64,000 bases of DNA, taken from an uncultured Spirochaetia bacterium. GTDB lineage: Bacteria > Oederibacteriota > PGYV01 > Palsa-1178. Made by a program: the position numbers and the translations under genes. Shown here in pieces: positions 271 to 58,361 of this stretch (within the stretch, counting starts at the first letter, position 1; each line of letters begins with the position of its first letter). Where the stretch lies: contig CAZMGF010000001.1 in assembly GCA_964565765.1 (NCBI GenBank), positions 43,283-107,282 on the forward strand, given 5' to 3'. The notes under the pieces were generated by a model. That model was not told the origin of the DNA. It did no database searches and saw only the letters and a program-made list of their open reading frames with translations.

Positions 271-436
271 TTTTCGCCCTCCATAATTTATAGTATTAAT
301 AATATTAGGATATATTATAAAAGTCAAGAAGTTTGATGCCTGCCTTTAAAACGGCCCCTTTTCTTACTTGGACTTGAAAAAACCGGCCTGATATACTATT
401 ATATACACATATTATTTCAACATGTTGGAGGTAAAA

Positions 437-2830: not shown

Positions 2831-4744
2831 ATGAAAAAAGTTATTTTAGCGGTATTATTAATATTCACGGCGCGGCTTGTCCTTGCGCAACAGGGAGGCG
2901 CCTTTGTCGGAGCGGGCGGAGACGAACCCGCAAGCGTAGATACCGGCGCTGTAATGACCGGCGATGAGGACGAGGATATACAGACAGGTTTGAATGAATA
3001 CGCGCAGATTTCCACTGTGTTTAAGGGCGGCGCGCTTTCAGGAGGCGCGGTAACCGCGGCTGACCTTCTGGGAGATGTGCCGGGAATATATTTCAGCAAG
3101 GCTTCGATAATGGCCGCCGGAAACGGGCAGTTCTCGCCGCAGGTAATTAATATCAGGGGATTCGGCAGCGCTCCGTACGCTAATATACTCACCGTGGTTG
3201 ACGGAAGGCCGCAGTCAATGTCAATGTGGATGCACCCGCTGCTTGATACCATGACCCTTGACTGCGTTGAATCAATGGAAGTCATACAGGGGCCCTCGGG
3301 AGTATTATACGGGAACCAGGCAACAGGCGGAGTGATTGATATAACCACAAAAAAACGTGATGTCGAAGGCTCTTCATATGAAATGGGAGCCATGGAAGGC
3401 ACCCACTTTACACAGGATTATTTTTTTAACGGCTTATTCAAGGCGGAAGAGATAGATTCTTCCTTTACGGCGGGTTACAATACCACGGGCGGCGAGAGGC
3501 CAAATTCGGATTCATATACCGAGGACGGGCATGCCCATGTGGGATATAAATTTGAGGAGGATCTTTCCGCGGCTGTGAACGGTGATTATTCTTATATAAG
3601 GTCATTCAATCCAGGGCCCGACTTTGCGCCCTACTGGCCCAGGGAAGCCGAGGCGCTTGAGGCGATTCATCGCGACGGCGATTTCAGGATAAATTATAAG
3701 CTCACCGATTATACGGGCTCAACAATGTTTTATACGGATTCCGGGTCCAACAGGTTCCTGGGAAACGCCACACCGTCAGCTGTAACGCCGGGAGCCTTTG
3801 ATTTTACAATTCCGGGAGAGTACGACCAGTATGAAAATCACGGCATACGTGTGGCCAATGAATGGATAATATTTCCCGGGAATTCCACAAAAGCCGGCAT
3901 TGACTGGCAGTATACAGGGACATTTTATGAAAATTATCCGGCAGTTTCATCCACTGCTGTTAATGTCGGAACCTATGAGGACAATTACGCGCCGTATTTT
4001 CTTATCAGCCAGGCCGTGGGGATATTCGGGGTATCCGGCGGGTTAAGGATGGCTTATTCCAGCAAATGGGGGTTTGTGCCAATCCCGCAGGCGGGCCTGA
4101 AACTTTCTATTTTTGACCAGCAGACAATTTATGTGAATGTTTCCAGGGGGTATTCAACCCCGGCGGCCGGACAGATGGTATTTGCCAACTTTGAGTCACT
4201 TACACCGGAAAGTTTCTGGCAGTACGAAGCCGGCCTCACCCAGACCTTAAATGAAAATCTTACATTCACACTTTCCTGCTATCAGATTGAGGCCGAAAAC
4301 ATGCTGCAGGTTGACCCCATGGACGACACGCTGATGAATTCCGGCTCCATGCTTGAGCGGTGCGCGTCCGCTTCTGTTGATTACAGGGCTTTCGGCTTCC
4401 TTGACACAGGAGCGTCGGCGGCATACCTTGACCCGCGTGATAAGACGGCGCGGCTGGCGCTTTTTTCCGGAAAGGGATACATAAAGGCGGATATAACAAA
4501 GGAGTATGAATTTAAGATTTCTGCTGATTTTGCCAAAGACAGATATGACGCCGATGATTTCGGGACAAAGCTCGGAGATTACGCGGTTGTAAACGCCTCG
4601 CTGGATTATAAAACAAAGCTTTTTGATTCCGAGACAAAATTTTATCTCAACGCGGTAAATCTGCTCAACACAAAATATTACGTTATTTCAGGTTATCCGG
4701 GCGAAGGCTTCAACCTGATGTGCGGAATGACCCTGAAGATATAA
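2831..4744 (+). CDS. TonB-dependent receptor-like outer-membrane beta-barrel protein (plug domain plus barrel)
   Basis: Signal peptide MKKVILAVLLIFTARLVLAQ; plug-domain motifs NIRGFGSAPYANILTVVDGRP and VIQGPSGVLYGNQATGGVIDITTKK; C-terminal aromatic terminus typical of OM barrels. Confidence 0.7.
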   Translation: MKKVILAVLLIFTARLVLAQQGGAFVGAGGDEPASVDTGAVMTGDEDEDIQTGLNEYAQISTVFKGGALSGGAVTAADLLGDVPGIYFSKASIMAAGNGQFSPQVINIRGFGSAPYANILTVVDGRPQSMSMWMHPLLDTMTLDCVESMEVIQGPSGVLYGNQATGGVIDITTKKRDVEGSSYEMGAMEGTHFTQDYFFNGLFKAEEIDSSFTAGYNTTGGERPNSDSYTEDGHAHVGYKFEEDLSAAVNGDYSYIRSFNPGPDFAPYWPREAEALEAIHRDGDFRINYKLTDYTGSTMFYTDSGSNRFLGNATPSAVTPGAFDFTIPGEYDQYENHGIRVANEWIIFPGNSTKAGIDWQYTGTFYENYPAVSSTAVNVGTYEDNYAPYFLISQAVGIFGVSGGLRMAYSSKWGFVPIPQAGLKLSIFDQQTIYVNVSRGYSTPAAGQMVFANFESLTPESFWQYEAGLTQTLNENLTFTLSCYQIEAENMLQVDPMDDTLMNSGSMLERCASASVDYRAFGFLDTGASAAYLDPRDKTARLALFSGKGYIKADITKEYEFKISADFAKDRYDADDFGTKLGDYAVVNASLDYKTKLFDSETKFYLNAVNLLNTKYYVISGYPGEGFNLMCGMTLKI

Positions 4745-4826: not shown

Positions 4827-6377
4827 ATGAAAAAGATAGCGGCAATAATAATTTGTCTTGCGCTTTTGCAAATATTTACGGAAAATTCCGCGGCTAACGT
4901 TATAAATATACAGAATAATAATATAGGCTTAAATTTTGCCGATGATACATTTGGGTTTAATATGGGAACCAGCTATCTTTACAGCGTGCCTTCCGAACCG
5001 CTTACATTTGATTATCCCGGCACGTCGGAATTGCTTGACCCGCTATGCTTATCCACAACTCATTCAGTAATAAATGTGGACGGCAATTTATATGATTTTT
5101 ATGATTGCCCTGTAGTAGGTACTGTGACAAGCGGTTCCAATTATGTTTCCGGAACAAAACAGGCGGCCGGGGGAGACATACAGGTTAATTTAATGATGAG
5201 TCTGGTCAATAATCCTGCTATAAATTCGCCGGTAGATACGGTAAAAATTAAATACACCCTTACTAATTATTCGGCTGTGGCACACACAGTGGGAGTAAGG
5301 CTGGAATTAGACACAAAGGTTTTGGATCAGGACGGCGCTATTATTTCAACGGATAACGGCATTACAACATTGGCAACCACAACGGCCTGGTACAAATCCC
5401 TAGGACAGATACCGGCAAACTGGTGGGATTTTAACTCCAGCCCTTATTCGATTCCGCCGCCGGAGCTTGTCGGAAGAGGATATACATATAATAATCCTTA
5501 CGACGAAGCCGCAACAATGCCGGATATTATGGAAGTGGCGAATTGGGAAATGGTAAACGGAGACGCACAGTGGTCCGGAGAAACTATAGGCGACGGTCTT
5601 TCAGGACCTGATGACAGCGCTGTTGTATTCTGGTGGTGCAATGGTGATGGGGATCTTTCTTCGGGATTTACATTAAATCCGGGGGCTTCAATTTCATTTG
5701 TTACCTATTACGGGCTTAATGAGCAGGCGCTTCTTACCACACCGACAATTACCCCCACATATTCGCAGACATTCACAAGAACCCCGACTTTCACGATTAC
5801 CCGGACACCTACCATCACTTCGACATGGACAGGCACTTTTACCTTTACGCCTTCATTCACGCAAACATACACACCGACAATAACAAATACATTTACAAAC
5901 TCGCCGACATTTACAATTACCGCGACTGTTACCCCTACATCGACGGAAACGCCCACTTTTACAATTACCAATACATTCACGGTTACACCGACTGTAACGC
6001 CGACTTATACCGTAACAGAAACATTTACCCAGACACCTACACCAACAATAACCCCGACCTTTACCCCTACGCCGCCGCCTTTCAGGCTCATAGGCAAGGG
6101 CAATTTTCCAAACCCTTTTGTGAGCGACACATATCTGGTTTACTGGCTTTCAACTCCGGCGCAGACGGTCAAGCTTATGGTATACACCGTTTCCGGTGAA
6201 AAAGTTTTCTGGGACGACACCCTCACGGGGACTGCCGGTTATAATTCATACCACTGGACCGGCGTAAACAGGGCGCTGAAGCCCATCGCGTCAGGGGTTT
6301 TTATTTACAGGATAGACGCTTATGACGACAACGGCAACCACGCTGATGTAATTCAGAAGCTTGTCTGCGTAAAATAA
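4827..6377 (+). CDS. Secreted protein: N-terminal domain of unknown function, Thr/Pro-repeat linker, C-terminal Por/T9SS-like sorting domain
   Basis: Signal peptide MKKIAAIIICLALLQIF; about 110 aa of T-P-T/F-T repeats; C-terminus FPNPFVSDTYLVYWLS...MVYTVSGEKVFWDD shared with CDS 47779-51516 and 54297-57275. Confidence 0.6.
   Translation: MKKIAAIIICLALLQIFTENSAANVINIQNNNIGLNFADDTFGFNMGTSYLYSVPSEPLTFDYPGTSELLDPLCLSTTHSVINVDGNLYDFYDCPVVGTVTSGSNYVSGTKQAAGGDIQVNLMMSLVNNPAINSPVDTVKIKYTLTNYSAVAHTVGVRLELDTKVLDQDGAIISTDNGITTLATTTAWYKSLGQIPANWWDFNSSPYSIPPPELVGRGYTYNNPYDEAATMPDIMEVANWEMVNGDAQWSGETIGDGLSGPDDSAVVFWWCNGDGDLSSGFTLNPGASISFVTYYGLNEQALLTTPTITPTYSQTFTRTPTFTITRTPTITSTWTGTFTFTPSFTQTYTPTITNTFTNSPTFTITATVTPTSTETPTFTITNTFTVTPTVTPTYTVTETFTQTPTPTITPTFTPTPPPFRLIGKGNFPNPFVSDTYLVYWLSTPAQTVKLMVYTVSGEKVFWDDTLTGTAGYNSYHWTGVNRALKPIASGVFIYRIDAYDDNGNHADVIQKLVCVK
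5740..6075 (+). repeat. Low-complexity ACN-CCN-ACN (Thr/Pro) coding repeat, linker region
   Basis: Protein TPTFTITRTPTITSTWTGTFTFTPSFTQTYTPTITNTFTNSPTFTITATVTPTSTETPTFTITNT...; creates the spurious antisense VGV-rich ORF 5708-5980. Confidence 0.8.
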
Positions 6378-11157: not shown

Positions 11158-11808
11158 GTGCCAAACAAGACCCTTGCGGAAATGAAAGAAGTTTATGTAA
11201 AGCAGCGCGCGGCCATAGAGAGGGCCATTAAAAGTTACAGGGCCAAATGGGAAAAAGGCACCGAAGAAGAAGTGCTTGCCGAGATGCTTTTCTGCATTTT
11301 AACCCCCCAGTCCAAGGCAAAAGGATGCTGGTCATGCATGGAATCCATAATAAAAAAGAGGCTGCTCAAATCCGGCAGTGAAAAACAGATACTTGCAGAA
11401 CTTAAATATCCCCGTTTCAAATATAAAAAAGCAAAATATTTCGTGGAAGCGCGCGGAAAATTCATGGACAAGGGCAGGGTCACCATAAAAAAAATTATGT
11501 CCGGCTTTGACGATCCCATAAAAATGCGCGACTGGTTCCATGAAAACATAAAGGGCTACGGCCTCAAGGAAGCCTCTCACTTCCTGCGCAATGTTGGTTT
11601 CGGGGCGGATATTGCAATACTTGACCGCCACATCCTGCGCAACCTTAAAAAACTCGGGGTTATCAGTGAAATACCCGCGCATATATCGGAAAAACTCTAC
11701 CATGAGATAGAGGAAAAGATGAAAGCTTTTGCTAAAAAAATGAAAATCCCAATGGAGGCCCTGGACCTTATATTATGGGCCAAGGAAACCGGAGAGGTCT
11801 TCAAATAA
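11158..11808 (+). CDS. ogg: Ogg2-type (archaeal-type) 8-oxoguanine DNA glycosylase / AP lyase, HhH-GPD superfamily
   Basis: About 216 aa; LFCILTPQSKAK...IKGYGLKEASHFLRNVGFGADIAILDRHILRNLKKLG helix-hairpin-helix region with catalytic Lys/Asp spacing typical of small Ogg2 proteins; GTG start. Confidence 0.6.
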   Translation: MPNKTLAEMKEVYVKQRAAIERAIKSYRAKWEKGTEEEVLAEMLFCILTPQSKAKGCWSCMESIIKKRLLKSGSEKQILAELKYPRFKYKKAKYFVEARGKFMDKGRVTIKKIMSGFDDPIKMRDWFHENIKGYGLKEASHFLRNVGFGADIAILDRHILRNLKKLGVISEIPAHISEKLYHEIEEKMKAFAKKMKIPMEALDLILWAKETGEVFK

Positions 11809-13631
11809 TGGAAAACAATCCGTATTCATATTTTTTAACATCAAGGTCGGCAAAACAATGGAAACGCATGGGAGCCAGGAGAAGGGCCGGCGTGCTGGCC
11901 CCGCTTTTTTCCCTCTATTCGGAAGAAAGCTGCGGCATGGGAGAGTTCCCGGATATAAAACTTCTCGTTGACTGGTGTGTCAAATGCGGCATTTCAATAA
12001 TACAGCTGCTGCCGCTTAATGATTCGGGATTTGATTTTGCCCCGTATTCCGCCCAGTCAACTTTTGCCCTGGACCCCATGTACCTGCGCCTTGAATGCGG
12101 CGCCGGCCATGGCTCAAAGGATTGCGCCGGGGAAATTGAACGGCTGAAAAAAGCATGCCCGGCCGGGGCCAAAAGGGTGGATTACAGGCTGAAAAAAATG
12201 AAGCTCTCCACCCTGGGAAAAATTTTTACATCGTTTGCCGTATCGGAAGAATTTGAAAAATTCTGCCTTGATAACAGCTTCTGGCTTGACGATTACGCTG
12301 CATTTAAGGTGTTAAAGGATATGAATTCCATGAAGTCGTGGGAAGAGTGGGAAGAAAAATACAGGCGCAGGGATAAAGCCGCGCTGAAAGAACTGGCTAT
12401 CGGCCATGAAAAAGAAATAAAATTTCAGAAATGGCTCCAGTATCTGATATGGGCGCAGCTTTCCGAAGCTAAAAATTACGCCAATTCAAAGGGAGTTTTT
12501 TTGCAGGGCGACCTTCCATTTCTTGTGGCACGCGATTCCGCTGACGTATGGGCAAACCAGGAGTATTTCAACCTTGATGTATCATCCGGCGCGCCGCCTG
12601 ACATGTATTTCGCGAAAGGGCAACGCTGGGGAATGCCTACATATAACTGGGAAAAGATAGAAAAAAACGGATATGATTATATAAAAGAAAAAATAAAGTT
12701 CGCAGGAAATTTTTATGATATGTTCCGCATTGATCATTTTGTGGGATTATTCAGGCTGTGGACGATAAAACTAACCGAGCCTGAAAATACCTACGGCTTA
12801 AACGGGAAATTCGACCCCGGGGACAAAGATAAGTGGAAACAGCACGGCCAGAAAATACTCGACGCCATGACAGCAGACACCCTTATGCTTCCGTGCGCCG
12901 AGGACCTCGGCGTGGTGCCGGAGTGTTCATATGAGACACTTAAAGAGTATGCCATACCGGGAATGGATGTCCAGAGGTGGGCGCGCGACTGGGGAAATAC
13001 ATATGATTTTAAGGACGCGGATAAATACAGGGAAAATTCGATTGCCGTAATATCCAGCCACGACATGTCGCCGCTGGCAATGTGGTGGGAGCAGGAAGCC
13101 GCCACTGTCGACGCCATGCTTGTGGACAAATACTGCGAAGAATACGGATTTTCAAGGGATAATGTAATTGCCGGGCTCTTTGACACGCATATTTCAACAA
13201 AGACTAGGCTGCGCTGGCTGTCAGGCGTTACTTCGCCGGAAGAGGTACTGCGCAGGCTGGGAAAAAACAGGGACCAGGCGTGGATGTTCTATGACATGCA
13301 CAGGGAATCTTTTTATGAAAAAGAAAAGTTCTGGAATTATATCGGGCTCCAGGGGCAGCCAAAGGCCCAGGCAGAACCGTACTTTATAAAGGCGGCAATT
13401 GAAAAGGCCTCCTCATCAAGGTCGATATTCGCGATACAGCTTATACAGGACTGGCTCTCGCTGGGTTCATATTTTGACAACTGGGACCGTACGGATATGC
13501 GCACCAACACGCCGGGAACCATAATGGACAAAAACTGGTCAATAGTAATGCCGCTTCCACTCGAGGCAATGGGTTCAATGTCGATAAACAAGGAAATACT
13601 GAAGATTAATAAGGAGTCGGGAAGGATTTAA
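11809..13631 (+). CDS. malQ: 4-alpha-glucanotransferase (amylomaltase, GH77)
   Basis: LPLNDSGFDFAPYSAQSTFALDPMYL...; catalytic-region motif MLPCAEDLGVVPE; ATG at 11809 abuts the stop of the upstream gene. Confidence 0.8.
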
Positions 13632-40971: not shown

Positions 40972-41081
40972 ATTCCGCGTGTAAACAAAAATCATCTTTC
41001 AGGCGTCCAATAATTATGGTTCAAAAGAACAGGATTTTGGGGTATAATGAACCCTATCAAAGACGTTATAAGGAGATGAAA

Positions 41082-42062
41082 ATGACCAGCCGCAAAATTA
41101 TTTTCCTGCAATTTATCCTCACACTTTTATTTTTAGCTTTTAATTCCCATGTTTTGGCCCAGAATTCGGGTTCCGGGTCCGACAACGCCGATTATTCCAT
41201 CGCTTACATAAATGATTTTGACGGCGATTGTAATATTTTGAGGGCCGGAACCACACAGAGAGAAGATGTAAACGAGTTATATACACCGCTGTATAAGGGA
41301 GACACGGTGGAAACCGGGCCGTCATCCAAAGCGGAAATAGTTTTTGACGATGAGACCATTGTAAAACTTGACGAGAGCAGCTCAATTGCCATAGCGGATA
41401 TCAACAGGGACAAATACAAAAAGACCCTGCTTGACGTAATACAGGGGTGTGTTTTTCTTATTGTTAAAAAGCTGGAGCCCGGTGATGAATTTCAGATAAA
41501 GACAAAAATGGCCATAGCGGCCGTTAAAGGCACTGAATTTGCCGTACAGGCAGGCATCACGGGCGGCGATGACCATGTGGCGGTTTATGACGGCAGGGTA
41601 AGGGTAGCCTCAATGGATAACAACGGGAATGAAAAAGAAAATACATTTGTCGATAAAAACAATGAAACAGTAATATCCGGACATGAAAGGCGGCTGATCA
41701 GGCGCTCCGGCTTAAGCGACAGGTTCGCAAGCAGAAGGGCCGAGCTAAGCGACCTGCGCGCCAGGATTATGGCAATGCGCGAACTCAAGAGGAACGGAAA
41801 AATCAGGGAATTTAAATATAACAGAAGGCTGGAGCATATCCAGAAAATGAAACAGCTCAGGAACAACCCGGCAGTTTATAATAAAATGGACCGGATGCAT
41901 AAGGCAAGGATAGAAAAGATTATAAAACGCGAAGACATGTACAAGGCTGCGATTAAGAGAAGAAATGATGAGGTCAAACAGAATCAACAGGGCGGCGATA
42001 ATGACCACGGCCGCGACCAGGACCAGGATCAGAAGGACAAGCACCGCGGCTGGCACCTGTAA
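41082..42062 (+). CDS. Secreted FecR-domain protein with a highly charged Lys/Arg/Asp/Glu-rich C-terminal tail
   Basis: Signal peptide; FecR-like region FQIKTKMAIAAVKGTEFAVQAG; C-terminal about 120 aa low-complexity ...KRNGKIREFKYNRRLEHIQKMKQLRN...GGDNDHGRDQDQDQKDKHRGWHL. Confidence 0.5.
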   Translation: MTSRKIIFLQFILTLLFLAFNSHVLAQNSGSGSDNADYSIAYINDFDGDCNILRAGTTQREDVNELYTPLYKGDTVETGPSSKAEIVFDDETIVKLDESSSIAIADINRDKYKKTLLDVIQGCVFLIVKKLEPGDEFQIKTKMAIAAVKGTEFAVQAGITGGDDHVAVYDGRVRVASMDNNGNEKENTFVDKNNETVISGHERRLIRRSGLSDRFASRRAELSDLRARIMAMRELKRNGKIREFKYNRRLEHIQKMKQLRNNPAVYNKMDRMHKARIEKIIKREDMYKAAIKRRNDEVKQNQQGGDNDHGRDQDQDQKDKHRGWHL

Positions 42063-45105: not shown

Positions 45106-45162
45106 AATATGGCACGCAGCGTTCCGGCACTGTTAATTAACAAACATAAAAAAGGCAGGACA

Positions 45163-45690
45163 ATGGAAAAAGCGTTATCAACGGGCGTGACAGGTTTTTT
45201 TTCCAGAGAATACGGCAAGATGGTGAATTTTATCAGGAAACGGCTGAACGACTCTTCCTACCGTGACGCCGAGGATATTGTACAGGACGTTATGGTGAAA
45301 ATATTTGAATCTGCCGATATAAATGTGCCGCTTGAAAAATTATCGGCTTATATATATACGTCGCTGCGAAATAAGATTGTGGATTCTATTAGGGCCAGAA
45401 AAGGAGCCCTGGCGCTCGATGAAATATCAGAAAAAGAGGAATTTTCCCTCACAAAAATGGTGGCCGGAGCGGACAAGGACCTTGAGAACAGGGAATTCAC
45501 CGGCGTGCTGTATGAGGCCATAGAGTCGCTTGGCGAGGACGAACGTGAAATAGTTGTGCTTACGGAATTTGAGGATATTTCTTTCAGGGAACTTTCCGAA
45601 GAGTGGGGTGAACCTATAGGCACCCTGCTTTCAAGAAAGGCCCGGGCAATGGAAAAGATCAGGGAAACATTAAAAAAAGGAGGTGTTTGA
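45163..45690 (+). CDS. RNA polymerase ECF-type sigma-70 factor
   Basis: Region 2 YRDAEDIVQDVMVKIF and region 4 FRELSEEWGEPIGTLLSRKARAMEKI; about 175 aa from ATG 45163 (longer ORF start lies inside the repeat). Confidence 0.7.
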   Translation: MEKALSTGVTGFFSREYGKMVNFIRKRLNDSSYRDAEDIVQDVMVKIFESADINVPLEKLSAYIYTSLRNKIVDSIRARKGALALDEISEKEEFSLTKMVAGADKDLENREFTGVLYEAIESLGEDEREIVVLTEFEDISFRELSEEWGEPIGTLLSRKARAMEKIRETLKKGGV

Positions 45691-45691
45691 A

Positions 45692-46123
45692 ATGGAACAC
45701 AATGGCATGGAAGGGCGCGGCTGCGAGCATGGGCATGACTGGCCGGCTTTGAGGATCCTTAAGGTTGTGGGAATGGTAATCGGCGGGCTTTTTATTGCCG
45801 TGGTTTTCGGGTTCCTGTTCGGATATTTTGTAATGAAGCTCTGGAACTGGCTTATGCCTGATATTTTCGGACTGAAAACAATAGGTTACTGGCAGGCTTT
45901 CGGCATAGTGGTGCTGGCAAAAATGCTCTTCGGCGGATCTCACGGATCCCATTACAAGCATCATGGCGACAAATGGCGCCGCAGGCCATGGAGGCACATG
46001 CACGGCGGGGAATGGGCGCCGGGCGGGGATTATTCCAACTGGAAATATTACGAGGATTACTGGAAGAGCGAGGGAAAAGCCGCTTACGAGGCTTACCTTG
46101 AGAGGATAAAAGGGAACAAATAG
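45692..46123 (+). CDS. Two-TM membrane protein with His/Trp/Arg-rich cytoplasmic tail, translationally coupled to the ECF sigma gene (candidate anti-sigma or metal-sensing partner)
   Basis: AAGGAGG 7 nt upstream of ATG that follows the sigma stop by 1 nt; GSHGSHYKHHGDKWRRRPWRHMHGGEW tail. Confidence 0.5.
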   Translation: MEHNGMEGRGCEHGHDWPALRILKVVGMVIGGLFIAVVFGFLFGYFVMKLWNWLMPDIFGLKTIGYWQAFGIVVLAKMLFGGSHGSHYKHHGDKWRRRPWRHMHGGEWAPGGDYSNWKYYEDYWKSEGKAAYEAYLERIKGNK

Positions 46124-46247: not shown

Positions 46248-47072
46248 ATGAAAAAACTCGCTCTGGTCATAGCCGCAGGATTTCTGCTGGTTTCATGTTC
46301 GAGCCGCCACAATCCGGCGGTTTCCCCTTTTTCGCCGGCATATTACACAAACACCGGAAAAATAAAGAGCTCTACCGTTACAACATATATCATATCTTCG
46401 ACAACCGCCGGGACATATTATTATGACTCCTCCGGAAATATTCAGAGAATAGACAACACAGTGTCTTCAATCCCTTCAGGGTCCGTTTTTTACCAGTATA
46501 CCGGTTCCGGCATGGTATCCTTTATAGGCAATCCGCAGTGCGTGACCCAGAACGGCAATGAATCTTTTTCGTATGACTCCTCAAACAGGCTCAGTGTGAT
46601 GAATTTCACGGCCACATACACGACAACATCCAATGATGTTCAGACGCTGAATTACGGGGGCGACGGCTATGTGGATACTATAAATGAGACGCAGAACGGG
46701 GCCACGGCATGCTACAGGGTGATAACAAGGGACGCTTATGGTTTTATAAACAGAGAGGATATTTACCCGAACCCTTCCTCCACTACGGAATTCGGTTATA
46801 TAACTTTTACGCGGGACGACGCCGACAAGATTGTTACTGAAAATATATTCATCGGTGCGGTTAATATGCTTACTGTATCCGCTGTTTATGATACGTCCGG
46901 ATTTATTTCACAACTGAATTATTCGGTTGGCGGGTTGCCGGTCATAAGCCAGAGCTTTGTGACCCAGAGCGGGCCGTTTGCGGCAGCGGGCTTAAACGGA
47001 TATTATTATACTGATAAGGACCTTTTCGGCCTTGCACACGATACGGTAAACGCGGGAAGCGCCGGGCAATAA
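46248..47072 (+). CDS. Ser/Thr/Tyr-rich lipoprotein of unknown function
   Basis: MKKLALVIAAGFLLVSCSS lipobox; no recognisable domain. Confidence 0.55.
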   Translation: MKKLALVIAAGFLLVSCSSRHNPAVSPFSPAYYTNTGKIKSSTVTTYIISSTTAGTYYYDSSGNIQRIDNTVSSIPSGSVFYQYTGSGMVSFIGNPQCVTQNGNESFSYDSSNRLSVMNFTATYTTTSNDVQTLNYGGDGYVDTINETQNGATACYRVITRDAYGFINREDIYPNPSSTTEFGYITFTRDDADKIVTENIFIGAVNMLTVSAVYDTSGFISQLNYSVGGLPVISQSFVTQSGPFAAAGLNGYYYTDKDLFGLAHDTVNAGSAGQ

Positions 47073-47520: not shown

Positions 47521-47556
47521 GGGCGGCAGGCCGGGAACTGCCGCCCCTTTTTTTTA
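47521..47556 (+). terminator. Rho-independent terminator
   Basis: GGGCGGCAGgccgggaaCTGCCGCCCctttttttt. Confidence 0.75.
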
Positions 47557-47698: not shown

Positions 47699-47728
47699 TT
47701 TGTCAAAAATATGGAGCTGTGATATACT
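47699..47728 (+). promoter_or_regulatory. Sigma70-type promoter TTGTCA-18-TATACT upstream of the GH8 gene; the element AACGTTAAAACGGTTAAAT (rc of 47742-47760) lies between -10 and RBS
   Basis: ttgtcaaaaatatggagctgtgaTATACT; downstream tttaaccgttttaacgtt. Confidence 0.35.
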
Positions 47729-47778
47729 TTTAATGTAGAATTTAACCGTTTTAACGTTCGCCCAGGAGATTGCGGCAT

Positions 47779-50700
47779 ATGAAAAGGAATTCCATTTTTT
47801 TATCTTCTATAATAGTTTTCATTCTTATAATTATTTCTTTTTCATTTTCAGATACCTGCAATTTTCCTTTCCCGCAGAACATAAACTATCCATACGGCAT
47901 CAAGCCAAATAATTTTACAAACGCGCAGATGGACCAGCACTGCCTGGACTGGTTCAATAAGTGGAAGGCATATTACGTCACCCAGAATAACTGCACCGGC
48001 AGTGAGTGGCGAGTACAGAGGACGGTTACGGGCAACGGCATAACCAACGGCTGTTACGGTTTCGCGACAGCTCCGGCCGAGAACGATACGGTCAGCGAAG
48101 CGATAGGGTATGGAATGGTAATCATGGTTTTCATGTCATCCGCAACCAACAACACACAGCAGTATTTTAACGGTTTTTATACCTACTACAAGGATCACCT
48201 GGACGGCGCCGGTCTCATGAACTGGCAGATACCATACTGCAACAGCGGCGGCTCGGCCACTGATGCCGATGAGGATGTTGCATTTGCGCTGCTGGCAGCT
48301 GACAAGCAGTGGGGTTCGGCGGGAGCAATCAATTACAAGAGCGAGGCAAATACTATAATTGGAAGGATACTTTCAAATGAGATAACCGCCGCCAACGACA
48401 TAAGGCCCGGCGACGGCTGGGACGGGGCGAATATCTCATATTTTGCCCCTTATGAATACAGGATGTTCGGGGATTATACCGGAACTTCACAATGGTATTC
48501 TGTGGCTTCGCATACCTACCAGACAATTGTAAATTATTACTCCAGCAATTCCCAGACGGTCAATGCCGCTCTCGGTATGGATACCGGCCTGATGCCAAAC
48601 TGGTGCAATTACGACGGGACCACATGGAGCCCGGGGGCATGGTCCATGGACCCAAACTCATGGTGGTGGGACGCTATCCGCCACGCGTGGAGGCAGAGCT
48701 ATGATTACCTGCTTTACGGCACCATGAACAGTCCGCTGGCCTACAGCAACAACAACAAAATATCCACATTTTTCCAGACAAAATATAACGGCGACGCCAC
48801 AAAAATACTTTCCCATTATACCCTCGACGGCACTGAAACACAGTACAACAGGGGGGACAGGACGCCTGATCTTGGCACAGAGGATGTAAGGAACCTGCCG
48901 GGCCCGGAGGGCGCGGTCGCGATTTCGGCCATGGTTGAAGGCGACCAGAACTGGCTGAATGAATGCTATTATGACCTGGTAACAATGGACGCCGGCACCG
49001 GCTCTGGAGGTCTTACAAACACCGGCGTGTTATGGGGAACGGATTATTTCTGCGACATATTGAAGATGCAGTATTTACTTATTCTTACGGGCAATATGCC
49101 AAATCCTATGGGAAACTATCCCACGCCAACTCCCACAAACACATGGAACGTATTGACCCCGACCCCGACCCCGTCGCCTACGCCGATAAGAGGGATGTTT
49201 GATGATTTTGAGACCGGAAATATAATCAATCTTGACACATCGGCAGGAGGCCAGACAGCTTTTACTTCGGTGGTGAATACAACAAACAGGCCGGCGGCAT
49301 TAACAGGCGGAGGTTTGCGTGACCTACAAATAACCTCTACTGCCAATGGCTGGGGGGCTTATGGAGAGGACTCACCATACACAGGGGGGCTCGGATATCT
49401 TGATGAAACAGGAGCGACAGCACTGTCATTCTACATTTATCCGACAGTGGCGCTCTCGGGAAATTTCTTTGTGAAACTTGTCGAGGCAACGGCCAACGGC
49501 GCTGATGGTGAAACATATTCAAACAGGATAACTGAAAGCACAAATTCAGCCCCGGCAAATACATGGACAAAGATAACTATCGCCATCACCAATACTTCCG
49601 TCTTCAGCAGGGACCAGTATAATACGGTTAACGGGGACGGTGTACTTGATTTGAGCGGTATCAAGAGTTTCTATTTACAGGTTGACAGCGCCCCGAACGC
49701 GACCATATATATAGACAATATACAGTTCACCGGGAATTTTCCGACGGTTACGCCGACTTCCACTGTGACAAAAACAAGGACGCCCAACGGGACGCCGACC
49801 AACAGCCCTACAATCACAGTGACCGCGACAAATACCCTTTATTATTCACCGACAATTACACCGACATGGAGCTCAACGCAGACAAATACTCCTTATATAA
49901 GCCCCACTATAACGCAGACTTCGACCATTACTCCGACTTTTACCCTGACGCCTTACATTCCTTTCGGGGTTTTTGACGATTTTGAGACAGGGGTATTTAA
50001 AAATTTAAATACAACTGATACCGGAGGCGGATCGACGGTTGCGGTTACCAACGTGACCACAACGGTTCATGCCGGCACTCATTCAATGCAGGTTGTAACA
50101 ACCGGAACAGCAGGATGGGCCGTTGTTACAATTGATTCGCCTTATGACGGCGGACTGGGTTACCGTAATTTTACCGGGGCAACCGCGCTTAATTTCTGGA
50201 TAGACGCGCCGGCCGGCACCGTATTGTTCGTAAAGGTTGTCGAGACGAACGGGCAGCAGTGGTCGGATAGGAACGTACCTATTACTGTTCCGGCCTCGGG
50301 TTGGCAGGATATAAATGTTGCGCTATCTTCGCTTACTGTGGACCAGTATTCACCCACCGGCGATGGGGACGACGTACTGGATCTAAACATTATTCAGAGC
50401 GTGACTTTTCAGTGGAACAATCCCGGAAATATGACCATGTATATAGATGACATAAAATTTACCGGCATGCCCACTCCTACAATGACGCAGACATCCACCA
50501 AAACAGCCACATTCACGCCCACCATGACTCCGAGCGCCACGGACACTCCGACGTTTACACTTACGCAGACCCCTGCATTTACAAAAACATATACGCCTTC
50601 AATTACGCCCACATATTCATTTACTGTACCGGCGACCATTACATTTACACAAACAGCAACGCCCACAACTACATTTACATACACCGGTACTCCGACATTT

Positions 50701-51516
50701 ACGGCCACTTCAACGCCGACATTCACATTTACCATGACAGTGACGCAGACAAGGACAGTATCGCCGACAATTACAATATCGCCCACGGGCACTCCGCCGA
50801 CGCAGACTGTAACGCCTACGGTAACTGCCACATCTTCTGCAACCCTGTCGGTCACGCCGAGTTTTACGCGGACATTTACAGGAACATTTACAATGACAGC
50901 CACGCCTTCATTTACCCCGACATATACGCAGACATCAACCGCGACATTTACCTTTACCCAGACGCTTTTCGTAACTCCGTCAATTACGCCGTCAGTAACG
51001 GCAACCATGACAGGCACGCCGCCAACCGCAACTTTTACTTCGACTGTAACGCAGACGGCCGCGAATACATATACTTTTACAATGACGTTTACCGGCACCG
51101 CAACCCAGACAATGACACCCACAATGACATTTACCTGTACTTTTACCCCGCAGGCGGTTCCAAGCGCGGTACTTACATTTACTGCCACTCCGACACTGAC
51201 GCCGGGCAATAACGGCGGGACAAAAACAGTTATTTTTCCAAATCCATACAATCCGGCCGCGGGCGGCAAGCTTGGAATAAGTTTTTATACTGAAGATACT
51301 TACAGTGAAATTCAATTCAAGGTATATACATGCTCATACAGGCTGGTATATTACGGGACACAGAGCGGAAGCTTCAAGGGGCAGACAGAAGCGGACATGG
51401 ATGCCGGCGGGTTTACAAAATTTGCCAATGGTGTATATTTTTATGCGGTGTCAGGGACAAATACCGGCGGACAGCAAAAAAAGTTTTCCACGGGAGTGCT
51501 TGATATTATTAAGTGA
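47779..51516 (+). CDS. Multidomain secreted glycoside hydrolase: GH8 catalytic domain, two tandem CBM-like beta-sandwich domains, three Thr/Pro linkers, C-terminal Por/T9SS-like sorting domain
   Basis: Signal peptide MKRNSIFLSSIIVFILII; GH8 signature ATDADEDVAFALLAADKQWG; duplicated about 160-aa module FDDFETG...GGLGY...IYIDNIQFTG (49195-49740, 49960-50460); C-terminus VIFPNPYNPAAGGKLGISFY... Confidence 0.75.
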   Translation: MKRNSIFLSSIIVFILIIISFSFSDTCNFPFPQNINYPYGIKPNNFTNAQMDQHCLDWFNKWKAYYVTQNNCTGSEWRVQRTVTGNGITNGCYGFATAPAENDTVSEAIGYGMVIMVFMSSATNNTQQYFNGFYTYYKDHLDGAGLMNWQIPYCNSGGSATDADEDVAFALLAADKQWGSAGAINYKSEANTIIGRILSNEITAANDIRPGDGWDGANISYFAPYEYRMFGDYTGTSQWYSVASHTYQTIVNYYSSNSQTVNAALGMDTGLMPNWCNYDGTTWSPGAWSMDPNSWWWDAIRHAWRQSYDYLLYGTMNSPLAYSNNNKISTFFQTKYNGDATKILSHYTLDGTETQYNRGDRTPDLGTEDVRNLPGPEGAVAISAMVEGDQNWLNECYYDLVTMDAGTGSGGLTNTGVLWGTDYFCDILKMQYLLILTGNMPNPMGNYPTPTPTNTWNVLTPTPTPSPTPIRGMFDDFETGNIINLDTSAGGQTAFTSVVNTTNRPAALTGGGLRDLQITSTANGWGAYGEDSPYTGGLGYLDETGATALSFYIYPTVALSGNFFVKLVEATANGADGETYSNRITESTNSAPANTWTKITIAITNTSVFSRDQYNTVNGDGVLDLSGIKSFYLQVDSAPNATIYIDNIQFTGNFPTVTPTSTVTKTRTPNGTPTNSPTITVTATNTLYYSPTITPTWSSTQTNTPYISPTITQTSTITPTFTLTPYIPFGVFDDFETGVFKNLNTTDTGGGSTVAVTNVTTTVHAGTHSMQVVTTGTAGWAVVTIDSPYDGGLGYRNFTGATALNFWIDAPAGTVLFVKVVETNGQQWSDRNVPITVPASGWQDINVALSSLTVDQYSPTGDGDDVLDLNIIQSVTFQWNNPGNMTMYIDDIKFTGMPTPTMTQTSTKTATFTPTMTPSATDTPTFTLTQTPAFTKTYTPSITPTYSFTVPATITFTQTATPTTTFTYTGTPTFTATSTPTFTFTMTVTQTRTVSPTITISPTGTPPTQTVTPTVTATSSATLSVTPSFTRTFTGTFTMTATPSFTPTYTQTSTATFTFTQTLFVTPSITPSVTATMTGTPPTATFTSTVTQTAANTYTFTMTFTGTATQTMTPTMTFTCTFTPQAVPSAVLTFTATPTLTPGNNGGTKTVIFPNPYNPAAGGKLGISFYTEDTYSEIQFKVYTCSYRLVYYGTQSGSFKGQTEADMDAGGFTKFANGVYFYAVSGTNTGGQQKKFSTGVLDIIK
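50460..51220 (+). repeat. About 760-bp Thr/Pro/Phe coding low-complexity repeat (linker), with shorter copies at 49080-49200 and 49730-49975
   Basis: PTPTMTQTSTKTATFTPTMTPSATDTPTFTLTQTPAFTKTYTPSITPTYSFTV...; antisense VGV-rich ORF 50409-51269 is a shadow of this repeat. Confidence 0.8.
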
Positions 51517-54218: not shown

Positions 54219-54296
54219 TCTTTGATTTCTCCGCGTTATTTTTTTTGCGGAAAATACTGGAATAAAAAAAATCAATTGCATGGAGAAAGCAAGCCT

Positions 54297-57275
54297 ATGA
54301 GGCCGGGAAAATTATTGTTTATATCATTTTTTTGCGTGCTGCTTTTTCCGGCGGTTTTTTTAAGGGCCAATGTCGCCGGCGGCGGAACAGGCACCGGAGC
54401 GAACGTGACTGCGACACAGACAGGCAATAATGTGGTCCTGGCTAACGGCATAGTTTCTATTACAATAGACATCACCAATGGCAATATCACAAATTTTACC
54501 TATAAAGGCACGAACCTTATGGCAGGCGGCAACGGCGGTGGATATTTCTATATAGACGGCTCCGGCGGGCCCACACTGACGAATCCGGCTTACACCCTGA
54601 CGGTTAATCCGGCGGACAACGGCGGGAATCAGGCTGAAGTGGAGCTGCAGACGCTTGGCAGCCCCATGGATTGCACCCTTTATTACGACCTGCTACGCGG
54701 ACAGCAGGGTATCTACGACACTCTGGTACTGACACATGAAAATACATACGCAGACTACCCCGGAGCTGAACTGCGCACTAATATGTACGTAGGCTCAATG
54801 TTCGACTGGATATGCGTTAACCCTTACCGGTTCCGCCAGATGGCCTCGCCAAATGACACTTACATAGCCACTCCCGGAGCGCCCGCGGAAGTATTTGATT
54901 TCACCAGCGGTATTTATTCCGGCACCACGGGATGCAAATATTCCTACAGTCAGCCGCTTGGCCAGACGAACGCATACGGCTGGGCCTCAACCACATCAAA
55001 ATTTGGAATCTGGCAGACCTTCCCGAGCCATGAATATCTGGACGGCGGGCCCATGCACAGGGAACTAACCGCGCACCTTGGCAACACTCTGCTTGACATG
55101 TTCGGAGGCGGACACTACGGCTTCGGACTTTCCCAGGATCAGCCGGCCGGAACATTTGTTTCCAAGACCTTTGGCCCGGCTTTCATTTACGCCAACGAAT
55201 ACACGGGCACTGCCACTGATGTCAGCATATACGCGCAGGCTTTATTTACTGACGCTCAGGCGCAGGCCCAGGCAGAGCAATCTGCATGGCCCTACGCCTG
55301 GTTCAACCCGCAGCCGGAGGCGACGGGTTCCGGCACCACGGTTTCCGCATACCCGCAGGCTGCGGACAGGGCAACCGTAACAGGTACTTTTGCCATCAAC
55401 GACGCATATAATCCCGCGGCATCACCTGCGGGCATGTGGATAGGGTTGGCGCCGCTTGACGGCGGGGTGGATTTCCAGCAGCAGTATCTCACCTGCCAGT
55501 TCTGGGTACAGACCGGAGCCGGAGGCGCTTTTTCAATTCCAAACGTGCTGCCGGGAATTTATAATCTCTGGGCCTTCGGGCCTGGAGCGGCCGGCACCTT
55601 CGAACAGTCCAATATAACCGTGGCCGCGGGGCAAACCCTGAATCTTGGAGCAGTGACATGGGCTCCGCTGCGCCTCGGGCCGACTGTGTGGGAAATAGGC
55701 GTGCCGGACCGGAGCAGCGAAGAATTTAATAATGGAGAGCACGACGTGACCCCCTGGAGCGGCGTTCTGCCGCCATACGCAGGCGGCGCGCCATACAACA
55801 CTCCGGCGGTATGGTCCGCTTTTCTGGATTATGCAAACCAGTTCCCAAATGATGTCAGCTACACGGTCGGCGTAAGCAACTACGCCTCTGACTGGAATTA
55901 TTGCCAGCCTACCATACTAAATGCCGGCGGCACATACGTGGGAACCACATCAAAAATTTATTTCAATCTGGCAAAGGCGCCTGCGGCGGGAAATCAGGCG
56001 CGCCTGTATATAGCATTTGCGGCCGGCTACAGCGCGGCCTGCATACTAACCATTAACGGAGTTGTCCAGACTGCGCCGGTCACAGGATCCACAGACGGGG
56101 CCAACGCGGCAACCATAGCGAATTCAACCACGGGATTTTATGTGCCAAACTACAGCTTTGATACCATGGTGCGCCTGGGCACGGACGGGGCATGGGGAGA
56201 CGCATACCTTGATTTTCCCGGTACTAATCTTAAGGCGGGATGGAACGAAATTGATATAGGCCTGCGGCCGACCGGAGGGGCAGGCAACGGCAATGGTTTT
56301 GAATATGATTATATAAGGCTTGAGCTTCAGGGCTACGCCCAGCCGAGCCCTACTCCTTCTCCGCAGGGTACCGCTGCGGCGACATATTCGCGGACTGTAA
56401 CTCCTTCATATACGGGGACGCCGGCCAATACTTTTACCATGACTGCTTCCGCGACATCAACTTTAACAAGGACATCTTCATACACAGCCACGGAAACCGG
56501 GACATATACGCCTGCATTAACTGCGACCCGGACTTTAACTTTTTCAGCGACACCAACGCCGACCCCGGCAAATTCTGTGACTTTCACGGCAACACCGTCG
56601 CAGAGTGTTATTGCCACGGCGGCTTTCACGCAAACAACCACAGCTTCGGCCACATTTACGGCGGCGGAAACCGGGACAATGACAGCAACCACCGCTTATA
56701 TGCTGACTGAAACATTAACATCCACGCCTTCATATACATTTACAATAACTGTTACGAAGACAATTACCGGAACCGCAACTGGCACGGTTACTGCGACATA
56801 TTCCCGTACATCAACGGCTGTCATAACGACAACCTGGACAGCCATGCCGTCTTATACTGCAACCGCAGCAGCCACTATAACCCTGACGATAACCAGCCAG
56901 GCAACCCCTTCCGCTACATTGATTTATACGGCTGCTTCAACCCCTACAGCGGCGGAATCTCCGGTTCCTGAAAGCACGCCGGCTGAAGTAATTGTCTATC
57001 CTGATCCGTACGATCCGGAAAAAGGAAACCTGAATATCATGTACAGCCTTGCTGAACCGGAGTCTTCCGTGGAATTCAGGCTCTATACAAGGGGGTTCAG
57101 GCTTATAAGGCAGGAAAATCTGACCGCGGGCATTGCCGGAATAAAAACAGATAACGTCCCGGCGGATGTTTTTGACGGACTTTCAAACGGAATTTACATA
57201 TATGTGCTGATAATAAAGGGAGATGACGGAATGGAAAGGCCGGGGAAATTAAGGGAAATGATAATTTTAAGGTAA
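54297..57275 (+). CDS. Secreted rhamnogalacturonan-lyase (PL4)-like enzyme with Thr/Ala/Ser linker and C-terminal Por/T9SS-like sorting domain
   Basis: Signal peptide MRPGKLLFISFFCVLLFPAVF; N-terminal region IVSITIDITNGNITNFTYKGTNLMAGGNGGGYF...VWEIGVPDRSSEEFNNGEH reminiscent of RG-lyase beta-sandwich/CBM-like domains; C-terminus VIVYPDPYDPEKGNLNIMYS... shared with the two other CTD proteins. Confidence 0.5.
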   Translation: MRPGKLLFISFFCVLLFPAVFLRANVAGGGTGTGANVTATQTGNNVVLANGIVSITIDITNGNITNFTYKGTNLMAGGNGGGYFYIDGSGGPTLTNPAYTLTVNPADNGGNQAEVELQTLGSPMDCTLYYDLLRGQQGIYDTLVLTHENTYADYPGAELRTNMYVGSMFDWICVNPYRFRQMASPNDTYIATPGAPAEVFDFTSGIYSGTTGCKYSYSQPLGQTNAYGWASTTSKFGIWQTFPSHEYLDGGPMHRELTAHLGNTLLDMFGGGHYGFGLSQDQPAGTFVSKTFGPAFIYANEYTGTATDVSIYAQALFTDAQAQAQAEQSAWPYAWFNPQPEATGSGTTVSAYPQAADRATVTGTFAINDAYNPAASPAGMWIGLAPLDGGVDFQQQYLTCQFWVQTGAGGAFSIPNVLPGIYNLWAFGPGAAGTFEQSNITVAAGQTLNLGAVTWAPLRLGPTVWEIGVPDRSSEEFNNGEHDVTPWSGVLPPYAGGAPYNTPAVWSAFLDYANQFPNDVSYTVGVSNYASDWNYCQPTILNAGGTYVGTTSKIYFNLAKAPAAGNQARLYIAFAAGYSAACILTINGVVQTAPVTGSTDGANAATIANSTTGFYVPNYSFDTMVRLGTDGAWGDAYLDFPGTNLKAGWNEIDIGLRPTGGAGNGNGFEYDYIRLELQGYAQPSPTPSPQGTAAATYSRTVTPSYTGTPANTFTMTASATSTLTRTSSYTATETGTYTPALTATRTLTFSATPTPTPANSVTFTATPSQSVIATAAFTQTTTASATFTAAETGTMTATTAYMLTETLTSTPSYTFTITVTKTITGTATGTVTATYSRTSTAVITTTWTAMPSYTATAAATITLTITSQATPSATLIYTAASTPTAAESPVPESTPAEVIVYPDPYDPEKGNLNIMYSLAEPESSVEFRLYTRGFRLIRQENLTAGIAGIKTDNVPADVFDGLSNGIYIYVLIIKGDDGMERPGKLREMIILR
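56335..56995 (+). repeat. Thr/Ala/Ser/Pro low-complexity coding repeat (linker)
   Basis: SPTPSPQGTAAATYSRTVTPSYTGTPANTFTMTASATSTLTRTSSYTATETGTYTPALTATRTLTF... Confidence 0.75.
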
Positions 57276-57302: not shown

Positions 57303-57331
57303 TTGATTAATCCGCGCAAGTGTTTTAGAAT
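57303..57331 (+). promoter_or_regulatory. Sigma70 promoter TTGATT-17-TAGAAT for the lacI-family regulator
   Basis: ttgattaatccgcgcaagtgtttTAGAAT followed by AAAAGGAG RBS. Confidence 0.4.
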
Positions 57332-57348
57332 GGCCAAAAGGAGAATTA

Positions 57349-58361
57349 TGAAGGCAATCACCATAAAAGACATCGGCAAAAAACTCGGCATTTCACACAC
57401 AACTGTTTCCCGCGCCATCAACGGCGACACGCGTATCAGCAAAGCCACACGCGACAGGGTCATGGCGGCGGTGGAAGAGATGGACTATTCCCCGAATCTT
57501 GCCGCGCGCGGCCTGGTAAAAGGGAAATCAAACACAATAGCTATCGTGACCCCTTCATATTTTGCCAATTTTTCAGTTGATGTAATGAGGGGCATTGAGC
57601 CTGAAATGATAAAAACCAAATATGACATCTGCTATTATACAACAAGCCGTTACACAACCATGGGAACACAGGGGATGGATGAACATATTTATGAAATGAT
57701 ATTGAACGAAAAAAGGGCCGACGCGGTAATTGTGATAAACGGTTCTCTGCAGGGGAGAAAGGATATAATTAAGCGTTACAGGGACGCGGGGATCCATCTG
57801 GTGTTTGTGGAGGGCAGGGATGACTGGGGGCACAGGGTCCATTATGACAACCAGAAGGCCGCGGCAATGGCTGTAAAGCATCTTGTGGAACGCGGAAGAA
57901 AAAAGATCGGGCTGCTTATAGGAAATTTTGACTGTGTTGAATCGATGATGGAAAGGCACGACGGGTTCAGAAAAGCCATGCAGGAATACGGCGGAAAACT
58001 CGAAAAAGAATCAGTATTCAGCTTTATTGAGGATTTCGGGGACGCTGTAAAAAATTCCCTTTATCATTTTATCAAACACAAGATAAACGCAGTATATGTC
58101 GGCACCGGCGATGAGGACGCGATAAGAATGATAAATGAGGCGAAAAAACTTGGCTTAAGGGTGCCTGAGGATATTGCGATAGTGGGGCAGGATGACATAA
58201 GGATGGCAGCGGTGGCCGGACTTACCACAATAAAGCAGCCCATAACCGAAATGGGACAAAAAGCCGTTGAAATGGCCGTTGCCGCCATTGAACAAAAAGA
58301 GCTCAAAAAAATGAGGGATGAGATATTTTATCCGGAATTAATTATAAGGAAGACAACATAA
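57349..58361 (+). CDS. LacI-family transcriptional regulator
   Basis: N-terminal HTH MKAITIKDIGKKLGISHTTVSRAINGDTRISKATRDRV; periplasmic-binding-protein-like sugar-binding core. Confidence 0.85.

Follow-up and report, generated by a model that had tools for sequence, protein, structure and literature searches.

Described relatives and the locus under study

Goldbacteria genomes carry many GH5, GH8, GH9 and GH44 genes, with CBM11 as the dominant carbohydrate-binding module (CBM; 24 copies), and cells of this group, which is placed together with Firestonebacteria and Elusimicrobia, have been captured on labelled cellulose (Doud et al. 2020, PMC7031533). That study, on 'Ca. Cellulosimonas argentiregionis', does not discuss linkers, C-terminal domains or secretion, and for HGW-Goldbacteria-1 the cellulases were counted only (Hernsdorf et al. 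2017, PMC5520028). We investigated a gene from the same phylum-level lineage, located on the forward strand at 47779..51516 of a 64,000-nt stretch of metagenomic DNA (contig CAZMGF010000001.1 of assembly GCA_964565765.1; hereafter the window). It is a complete coding sequence for a protein of 1245 aa plus stop, composed of a signal peptide, a GH8 catalytic domain, two CBM11 modules, three linkers, the last of which is a long stalk of Thr alternating with other residues (Thr-x), and a C-terminal β-sandwich. The GH8-CBM11-CBM11 architecture, the Thr-x stalks and the C-terminal domain are undescribed in both Goldbacteria papers, and no biochemical study of this architecture was found in the literature searched.

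The gene probably encodes a Sec-exported modular endo-β-1,4-glucanase of a diderm of the Goldbacteria/candidate division FCPU426 type, with a GH8 domain, two CBM11 modules, a spacer stalk, a C-terminal display tag and a linker that changes slowly. The alignments presented below show a predicted CelA-type inverting GH8 domain, with its catalytic Glu and both catalytic Asp residues, followed by two diverged CBM11 modules. Both halves have a characterised counterpart in Clostridium thermocellum. CelA (1CEM, 1KWF) is a secreted endoglucanase of an anaerobic cellulose degrader, as the window protein is predicted to be, and the two share the catalytic Glu, the ATDADED block and the DA-R Asp. CelA, however, carries a dockerin, is a member of the cellulosome and has no CBM of its own, whereas the catalytic domain of the window protein is about 55 aa longer than that of CelA and is accompanied by two CBM11 modules, Thr-rich linkers of 348 aa in total and a C-terminal β-sandwich. 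CtCBM11 of Lic26A-Cel5E (1V0A, 6R31, 2LRO) belongs to the same Pfam family as the duplicated modules and is their best structural match (template-modelling (TM) score 0.73, 26% identity). Unlike CtCBM11, the modules of the window protein are two tandem diverged copies, and they are joined to GH8 and not to GH26 or GH5.

An identical protein (P0001) is already present in NCBI, JGI and ENA, where JGI names it endo-1,4-beta-D-glucanase Y. Orthologues with the full architecture, at 50–91% identity, were found in metagenome-assembled genomes (MAGs) named Candidatus Goldiibacteriota or candidate division FCPU426, and one of HGW-Goldbacteria-1 (P0014, PKL92875.1) is 53% identical and has the same architecture. 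Two MAGs, L004 and L008, whose GH8 domains are 93% and 71% identical to that of the window protein, are labelled 'uncultured Spirochaetia bacterium'; their relatives are labelled Goldbacteria or FCPU426, and the Spirochaetia labels are probably taxonomic mislabels. Outside the full-architecture orthologues, the nearest GH8 domains, at 47–54% identity, belong to the metagenomic proteins P0025–P0036, one of which (P0030) comes from a Chitinivibrionales bacterium. Several of them follow the same logic, a catalytic domain joined to a CBM (CBM_4_9) and/or to a C-terminal sandwich of the Por_Secre_tail family. They differ from the window protein in being about 520–680 aa long and without long Thr-x stalks, and their tails, where present, pass the Pfam threshold for the secretion system of type IX (T9SS). 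A more distant ENA protein of 1122 aa (P0043), with a GH8 domain only 31% identical, contains GH8, a Pfam CBM11, a second FDDFE-type module recognized by eye, about 250 aa of Ser/Thr/Pro linker and, at its end, a sandwich. Occurrence of the same layout at this distance suggests that the GH8-CBM11x2-linker-sandwich architecture is either old or convergent.

Signal peptide and catalytic domain

At its N-terminus the protein has a predicted Sec-type signal peptide, MKRNSIFLSSIIVFILIIISFSFS (aa 1–24; 47779..47850, +), in which a basic n-region, a hydrophobic core and a small-x-small site were read by eye. Cleavage is probable before DTCNFPFPQ. Among the orthologues, the hydrophobic leader was variable and the mature start, (A/S)DTCNFPFPQ, was conserved. 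The possibility of a lipoprotein was discarded: the residues S-D-T before the Cys at aa 27 do not make a lipobox, and this Cys belongs to the conserved start of the mature protein, DTCNFPFPQ.

The GH8 catalytic domain occupies aa 25–443 (47851..49107, +), as defined by Pfam and by phmmer against the PDB. An earlier note on this DNA, made from the letters alone, had recognized GH8 in the N-terminal region, and the assignment held. Pfam PF01270 (Glyco_hydro_8) scored 74.1 bits (cut-off 24; E=1.3e-20, aa 69–333), the best PDB match was C. thermocellum CelA (1cem; E=8.9e-41, 143 bits, aa 75–443), and the catalytic Glu and both Asp were aligned. The next PDB matches were the glucanase 5xd0 (1.8e-35) and the chitosanases 7cju and 1v5c (about 5e-30), and xylanases and Rex8A were much weaker matches. 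A scan of the whole protein against NCBIfam returned no family.

Residues Glu107, Asp162 and Asp298 align with Glu95, Asp152 and Asp278 of CelA. Glu107 sits in a DTVSE-G-GYG block, the place of the catalytic proton-donor Glu, and the donor is predicted to be conserved because the E95Q mutant structure 1kwf differs from 1cem at exactly the Glu107 column. The signature block quoted in the earlier note, ATDADEDVAFALLAADKQWG, is present at aa 160–179. Within it, the GH8 family signature ATDADEDVAFALLAADKQW (aa 160–178) has one conservative deviation, a Val at the [IM] position of the PROSITE GH8 pattern, which we take to begin A-[ST]-D-[AG]-D-x2-[IM]-A. Asp298 lies in WWWDAIRHAWR, aligned to YKYDATRYGWR of CelA; an Asp at the position of CelA Asp278 is presumably the mark of the CelA-like GH8 subgroup and the catalytic base of CelA-type enzymes. 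The near full-length alignment with 1cem suggests an (alpha/alpha)6 barrel fold. Since CelA is the best match and the Asp278-type base is present, the most likely activity of the domain is that of an endo-β-1,4-glucanase.

Duplicated CBM11 modules

Two related modules follow, CBM11 module a (aa 472–653; 49192..49737, +) and CBM11 module b (aa 728–896; 49960..50466, +), which are 42% identical to each other (E=1e-30) and have in common the motifs FDDFETG, GGLGY, FVK(L/V)VE and (I/M)YID(N/D)I(Q/K)FTG. Motifs of this kind had been quoted in the earlier note as shared between the modules, and they were found in both repeats. Pfam PF03425 (CBM_11) scored 50.7 bits against a cut-off of 27 for the whole protein, in two stretches; when scored alone, module b reached 33.0 bits and module a 26.1 bits, 0.9 bit under the cut-off. 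A profile built from 22 orthologue modules matched CtCBM11 (1v0a, 2lro) over nearly its full length with E=6.5e-8. An AlphaFold2 model of module b had a pLDDT of 95.7, and Foldseek placed four CtCBM11 structures at ranks 1–4 (1v0a, 6r31, 6r3m, 2lro; E=3.8e-11 to 3.2e-9, TM 0.73–0.74), followed by other CBM-type sandwiches. By profile and by model, the duplicated modules are CBM11 carbohydrate-binding-type β-sandwiches. This agrees with the duplicated carbohydrate-binding β-sandwich that the earlier note had proposed; Pfam assigned PF01270 to the catalytic region and PF03425 to the repeats, as that note had suggested checking, and a non-carbohydrate-binding fold was not found.

Linkers and the Thr-x stalk

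The three linkers together comprise 348 aa, or 1.04 kb, which is more than the 0.9 kb estimated in the earlier note, and its description of them as Thr/Pro linkers fits the first and not the third. Linker 1 (aa 444–471; 49108..49191, +) is a true Pro/Thr box of 28 aa (29% T, 29% P). Pro/Thr boxes are known from bacterial cellulases, with Cellulomonas fimi CenA and Cex as examples, and linker 1, with 58% Pro+Thr, is of this type; by analogy, its role is presumably that of a flexible, possibly glycosylated hinge. Linker 2 (aa 654–727; 49738..49959, +) has 74 aa with 38% T and 15% P.

Linker 3, the stalk, spans 246 aa (aa 897–1142; 50467..51204, +, 738 nt), close to the 760 bp at 50460–51220 given earlier, and is a strict Thr-x alternation with 5 charged residues. 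It contains 42% Thr, 12% Pro and 9% Phe, with one Pro per 8.7 residues on average. Thr co-occurred at positions i and i+2 with a frequency of 0.34, versus 0.008 at i and i+1, and x in the TxT triplets was hydrophobic or aromatic in 45% of cases (Phe in 20%) and Pro in 13%. At the codon level this corresponds to an ACN-NNN pattern with a period of 6 nt, and not to the near-periodic ACN-CCN-ACN codons described in the earlier note. Classical Pro/Thr boxes are tens of residues long and dominated by Pro and Thr/Ser, and linker 3 does not belong to this class. It is about ten times longer, Pro makes up 12% of it, the residues between the Thr are largely hydrophobic, and conserved islands are present.

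Two such islands, embedded in otherwise fast-evolving Thr-x stalks, were recognized by motif comparison of the orthologues. Island 1 lies at 50737..50826 (+) and contains RTVSPTITISPTGTPPTQTVTPTV, and island 2 lies at 50962..51051 (+) and contains SITPSVTATMTGTPPTATFTSTV; their consensus is T-I-S/T-P-T-H-S-V-S-P-T-I-T-x-S/T-x-T-G-T-P-P-T-x-T-x-T-P-T. The motif was present in 14 of the 23 orthologues. It also occurred in full in the stalks of P0172 and P0241, unrelated secreted proteins (one of them named Goldbacteria) that have the same C-terminal domain, and as partial or variant forms in P0229, P0277, P0212 and P0218. The HGW-Goldbacteria-1 sub-clade has a different island, TITDTPPPGST, and the motif is not found in the other two Thr-linker proteins of the window.

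The C-terminal domain and its distribution

The last 103 aa (aa 1143–1245; 51205..51513, +) form a predicted β-sandwich with the motifs FPNPYNP...NGVYFY...DIIK, a putative sorting or anchoring tag. Neither this domain nor the signal peptide, the parts that decide where the enzyme acts, figured in the earlier note. The AlphaFold2 model of the domain was all-β with a pLDDT of 92.1. Among the Foldseek matches listed, the top TM score was 0.68, for the C-terminal part of the PorU chain 6za2, and FlgD was also listed; most matches were generic Ig-like sandwiches (NPC2, RhoGDI and polysaccharide deacetylase domains), so the fold alone is not discriminating.

As in the C-terminal domains (CTDs) that direct proteins to the T9SS, a β-sandwich of some 80–100 aa forms the very end of a protein that starts with a Sec signal peptide. 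A profile of the domain matched the PorU C-terminus in the PDB (E=0.008) and chain 8glj, a Por-secretion C-terminal sorting domain (E=0.097). Of 19 members of the domain family, 8 matched Por_Secre_tail (best E 3.6e-4), 7 matched CHU_C and 3 matched FlgD_ig (best E 1.1e-4). The FlgD Ig-like family PF13860 gave no match for the window domain itself, and a relative, P0224, passed it with 30.6 bits versus 27.

To place the domain among known proteins, a word-indexed search with its alignment returned 7 short fragments, and an exhaustive search of representatives was used instead. HMMER, run with the profile over 1.84 billion representatives, found 11,958 proteins at E<=1e-3, of which 853 reached E<=1e-10; in many of the proteins the domain was a single copy at the extreme C-terminus. 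Sampled proteins with the same domain had extracellular modules unrelated to one another and included GH26+CBM35 and GH30/59-like+Malectin enzymes, Kelch propellers and CBM96 proteins, and those with a taxon name were from Goldbacteria.

The window holds further proteins of this kind. At 54222–57275 (+) there is a gene for a 1017-aa secreted PL4-like rhamnogalacturonan lyase with fn3_3 and CBM-like domains, followed at 57303–58361 by a LacI-family regulator. In the lyase, a stretch of about 220 aa with abundant Thr, Ala and Ser serves as linker, and the C-terminal domain is a homologue of the one in the GH8 protein (E=5e-10). At 4827–6377 (+) lies a gene for a secreted protein of 516 aa whose N-terminal 300 aa belong to no Pfam family; its Thr-x linker is about 110 aa long, and its C-terminal sandwich is related and FlgD_ig-like (E=0.0037). 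The adjoining gene (2831–4744) encodes a TonB-dependent receptor, with a plug domain at 2831–4741, which indicates an outer membrane that the secreted enzymes must cross. By sequence comparison, the chassis of signal peptide, catalytic and binding modules, Thr-x stalk and C-terminal domain is present in at least two other window proteins and in many enzymes of related MAGs, a distribution consistent with a putative sorting or anchoring tag. No component of the T9SS machinery (SprA/Sov, PorV, PorU, GldK-N) was found in the 64-kb window, and the literature search found no paper that treats Goldbacteria and the T9SS together.

Proposed mode of action and alternative readings

In the mode of action that we favour, the GH8 enzyme would be exported by the Sec route from a diderm cell, and its CBM11 modules would hold it on non-crystalline β-1,4 or mixed-linkage β-glucan chains. 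The short and medium Thr/Pro-rich linkers would give the three globular modules independent reach, the essentially uncharged Thr-x region of 246 aa would form a long extended spacer, probably O-glycosylated, and the C-terminal β-sandwich would be the tag for sorting to the outer membrane and/or anchoring at the cell surface. In this way the enzyme would be displayed tens of nanometres from the cell surface and not released. Its linker would evolve slowly, by small in-register indels in non-repetitive DNA, and not by rapid slippage.

Several points weigh against parts of this reading. GH8 is polyspecific, and the family includes chitosanases, xylanases and lichenases. Of the residues that presumably form the CtCBM11 binding platform, Tyr22, Tyr53 and Tyr129, only Tyr129 is kept (Tyr in 19 of the 22 modules), Tyr22 being replaced by Thr and Tyr53 by Gly. 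In the same alignment of the 22 modules with CtCBM11, Trp54 beside Tyr53 is invariant and position 103 is always aromatic, and the CBM11 cleft is probably remodelled rather than lost. Because two of the three Tyr residues that we take to form the platform are replaced, the ligand specificity is uncertain and may differ from that of CtCBM11. Among Goldbacteria enzymes, activity has been shown for three GH9 only (PMC7031533). At the C-terminus, the window domain fell under every curated cut-off (PF18962 Por_Secre_tail, 19.0 vs 27; TIGR04183, 17.6 vs 23; CHU_C, 17 vs 27), and hhalign against the bona fide T9SS tail of the related GH8 protein P0027 found no similarity (probability 0.4%). The best-scoring named relative of the domain is an 'FlgD immunoglobulin-like domain containing protein' of the Gram-positive Acetivibrio cellulolyticus, an FlgD-Ig repeat protein. 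With its sub-threshold scores and no hhalign similarity to the P0027 tail, the domain was denied the label of a T9SS CTD; we describe it as a T9SS-CTD/FlgD-Ig-like sandwich. The glycosylation and the extended conformation of the stalk, too, are what we infer. As for the substrate, we consider it somewhat unlikely that the main target is mixed-linkage β-1,3-1,4-glucan (a lichenase-like activity), chitosan or xylan in place of cellulose. The polyspecificity of the family and the second-tier PDB matches to a glucanase and chitosanases (5xd0, 7cju, 1v5c) would fit such a target, as would the crystallisation of the characterised CBM11 with mixed-linkage tetrasaccharides (entry descriptions of 6r31 and 6r3m), and the neighbouring secreted pectin-type lyase suggests plant-wall matrix targets. 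The best and longest match is, however, to the cellulase CelA, the chitosanase matches spanning aa 30–353 only, and the Asp278-type base that we assume to mark the CelA-like subgroup is in place. Capture of Goldbacteria cells on labelled cellulose (PMC7031533) likewise points to an endo-β-1,4-glucanase.

The stalk admits two further readings, the one concerning its DNA and the other its conformation. The earlier note had regarded the third linker as a likely hotspot for slipped-strand expansion and contraction and for assembly errors. It is highly improbable that linker 3 is an artefact of assembly or a contingency region in which slipped strands change the length rapidly between strains, and the idea is largely refuted by the following observations. 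Tandem Repeats Finder (TRF) detected three tiny arrays in linker 3, with scores <=52 and at most 2.5 copies, and no array above a score of 52. The longest exact DNA repeat was 11 nt, at or below the expectation from codon-order shuffles (11.9+-1.5) and from synonymous shuffles that keep the protein (13.4+-1.7), the direct-repeat families were 60–73% identical, and the Thr codons were mixed (ACA 40, ACG 27, ACT 18, ACC 18). The tandem near-identical short DNA units of a slipped-strand locus were thus not found in linker 3, and neither was length polymorphism among close strains or assemblies. Two further contigs, one from JGI (sample 3300041809) and the other an ENA k141 contig of a different sample, carry the gene base for base (0 mismatches, same length), which makes three assemblies; the near-identical variant P0110 has 1 substitution and the same length; and P0003 and P0004 have no linker 3 indel relative to the window protein. 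Linker 2 was unchanged in length in four of five comparisons with the window protein (P0002, P0003, P0005 and P0006, down to 70% overall identity), P0004 having 6 additional aa. Comparison of linker length, which the earlier note had proposed among strains, did, among relatives, locate most orthologue indels in linker 3, as slippage would predict, and about 80% of these are multiples of 2 aa that keep the Thr-x register; net length, however, is conserved, at about 250–390 aa across orthologues down to 50% identity. A distant relative on a 908-kb MAG contig (L007, 5977-10788; 1603 aa) has a stalk of about 730 aa with true tandem duplications of 114–150 nt (92% matches, TRF), indicating that stalk expansion by duplication occurs in the family over long time scales. 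This relative has a Malectin-like domain in place of the second CBM11, as in the close relative P0013 (Pfam PF11721). The window gene itself shows no sign of a present-day slippage hotspot or of an assembly problem. It is also improbable, though less so, that the Thr-x region is a structured β-rich element, an amphipathic strand stack or fibre, which itself binds cellulose, the outer membrane or adjacent stalks. The strict period-2 alternation, the hydrophobic or aromatic share among the x residues of TxT (45%, with Phe 20% and Pro 13%), the near absence of charge and the conserved islands would suit such an element. Against it stand a Pro every 8.7 residues on average, an identity (50–69%) below that of the folded domains, frequent indels, and a length that varies from about 250 to about 730 aa among relatives, features that are typical of linkers and favour the spacer.

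A bolder proposal, which we regard as unlikely, is that the 250–730-aa Thr-x stalk, the 'SPTITxTxTGTPPT' islands and the C-terminal sandwich constitute a lineage-specific surface display system of Goldbacteria, using a divergent T9SS or an undescribed route, with the islands as processing or glycosylation sites. The T9SS has been described in Bacteroidota/FCB lineages, and Goldbacteria are reported to group with Firestonebacteria and Elusimicrobia (PMC7031533), not with these. If the proposal is true, the display system would tether a whole polysaccharide-degrading repertoire, including GH8, GH26 and GH30/59-like enzymes, the PL4-like lyase and Kelch proteins. Taken by itself, the object is ordinary: it adds a modular secreted endoglucanase to a phylum whose richness in GH8 and CBM11 is already on record. 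Its value is that of a clean, full-length and independently re-assembled example of GH8-CBM11-CBM11, and it illustrates that a Thr-rich linker can be very long although its DNA is not repetitive; linkers of this kind should not be put down to faulty assembly by default. A wider question concerns the means by which a cellulolytic lineage that is uncultured and lies outside Bacteroidota passes its enzymes through the outer membrane and retains them at the surface, a question made testable by the C-terminal-domain profile and the conserved stalk islands. Only the lineage-wide chassis of stalk and tail, with its export route, could repay further work.

Gene call and genomic context

The open reading frame on the + strand runs from 47770 (TTG) or 47779 (ATG) to 51516. 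The likely start is the ATG at 47779, because a putative ribosome-binding site, AGGAG (47764..47768, +), lies 10 nt upstream and the public gene calls give the same 1245-aa product. A sigma-70-like promoter candidate, defined by consensus match alone, is located at 47700..47728 (+), with TTGTCA, a 17-nt spacer and TATACT (10/12 consensus matches) and a TG preceding the -10 box. Further upstream, at 47521..47546 (+), a terminator-like hairpin with a 9-bp stem (8 GC pairs) followed by the T-run CTTTTTTTT marks the end of a DUF3276 gene and argues for the GH8 gene being its own transcription unit. Downstream, an MprF-like gene is convergent to the GH8 gene and ends 20 nt past its stop. From the upstream hairpin, the promoter candidate and the convergent neighbour, the GH8 gene looks monocistronic. 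An open reading frame of 286 aa at 50409–51269 (-) was rejected as a gene, being a Val/Gly-rich antisense shadow of the ACN-NNN periodicity of linker 3.

The order at the locus, hypothetical lipoprotein, DUF3276, GH8, MprF and PL4-like, is kept in the two closest MAGs. The gene at 46248–47072 (+), upstream of GH8, encodes a protein of 274 aa that begins with a lipoprotein-type leader (MKKLALVIAAGFLLVSC) and belongs to no Pfam family; its synteny is kept in L004, at 69% identity. A few kb upstream of GH8, at about 45109–46123 and 41016–42062 of the window, lie the gene of a sigma factor of the ECF type (Sigma70_r2/r4), after it that of a small membrane protein, possibly an anti-sigma factor, and the gene of a FecR-domain protein. 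No tRNA genes and no Rfam families at the gathering threshold were found in the 64-kb window, and an exact-product look-up for the open reading frame at 11775–13628 returned no record. Near the start of the window, at 422–2775 (+), are genes for subunits I and II of a cytochrome bd oxidase, in a lineage described as an anaerobic fermenter; the oxidase may serve oxygen detoxification.

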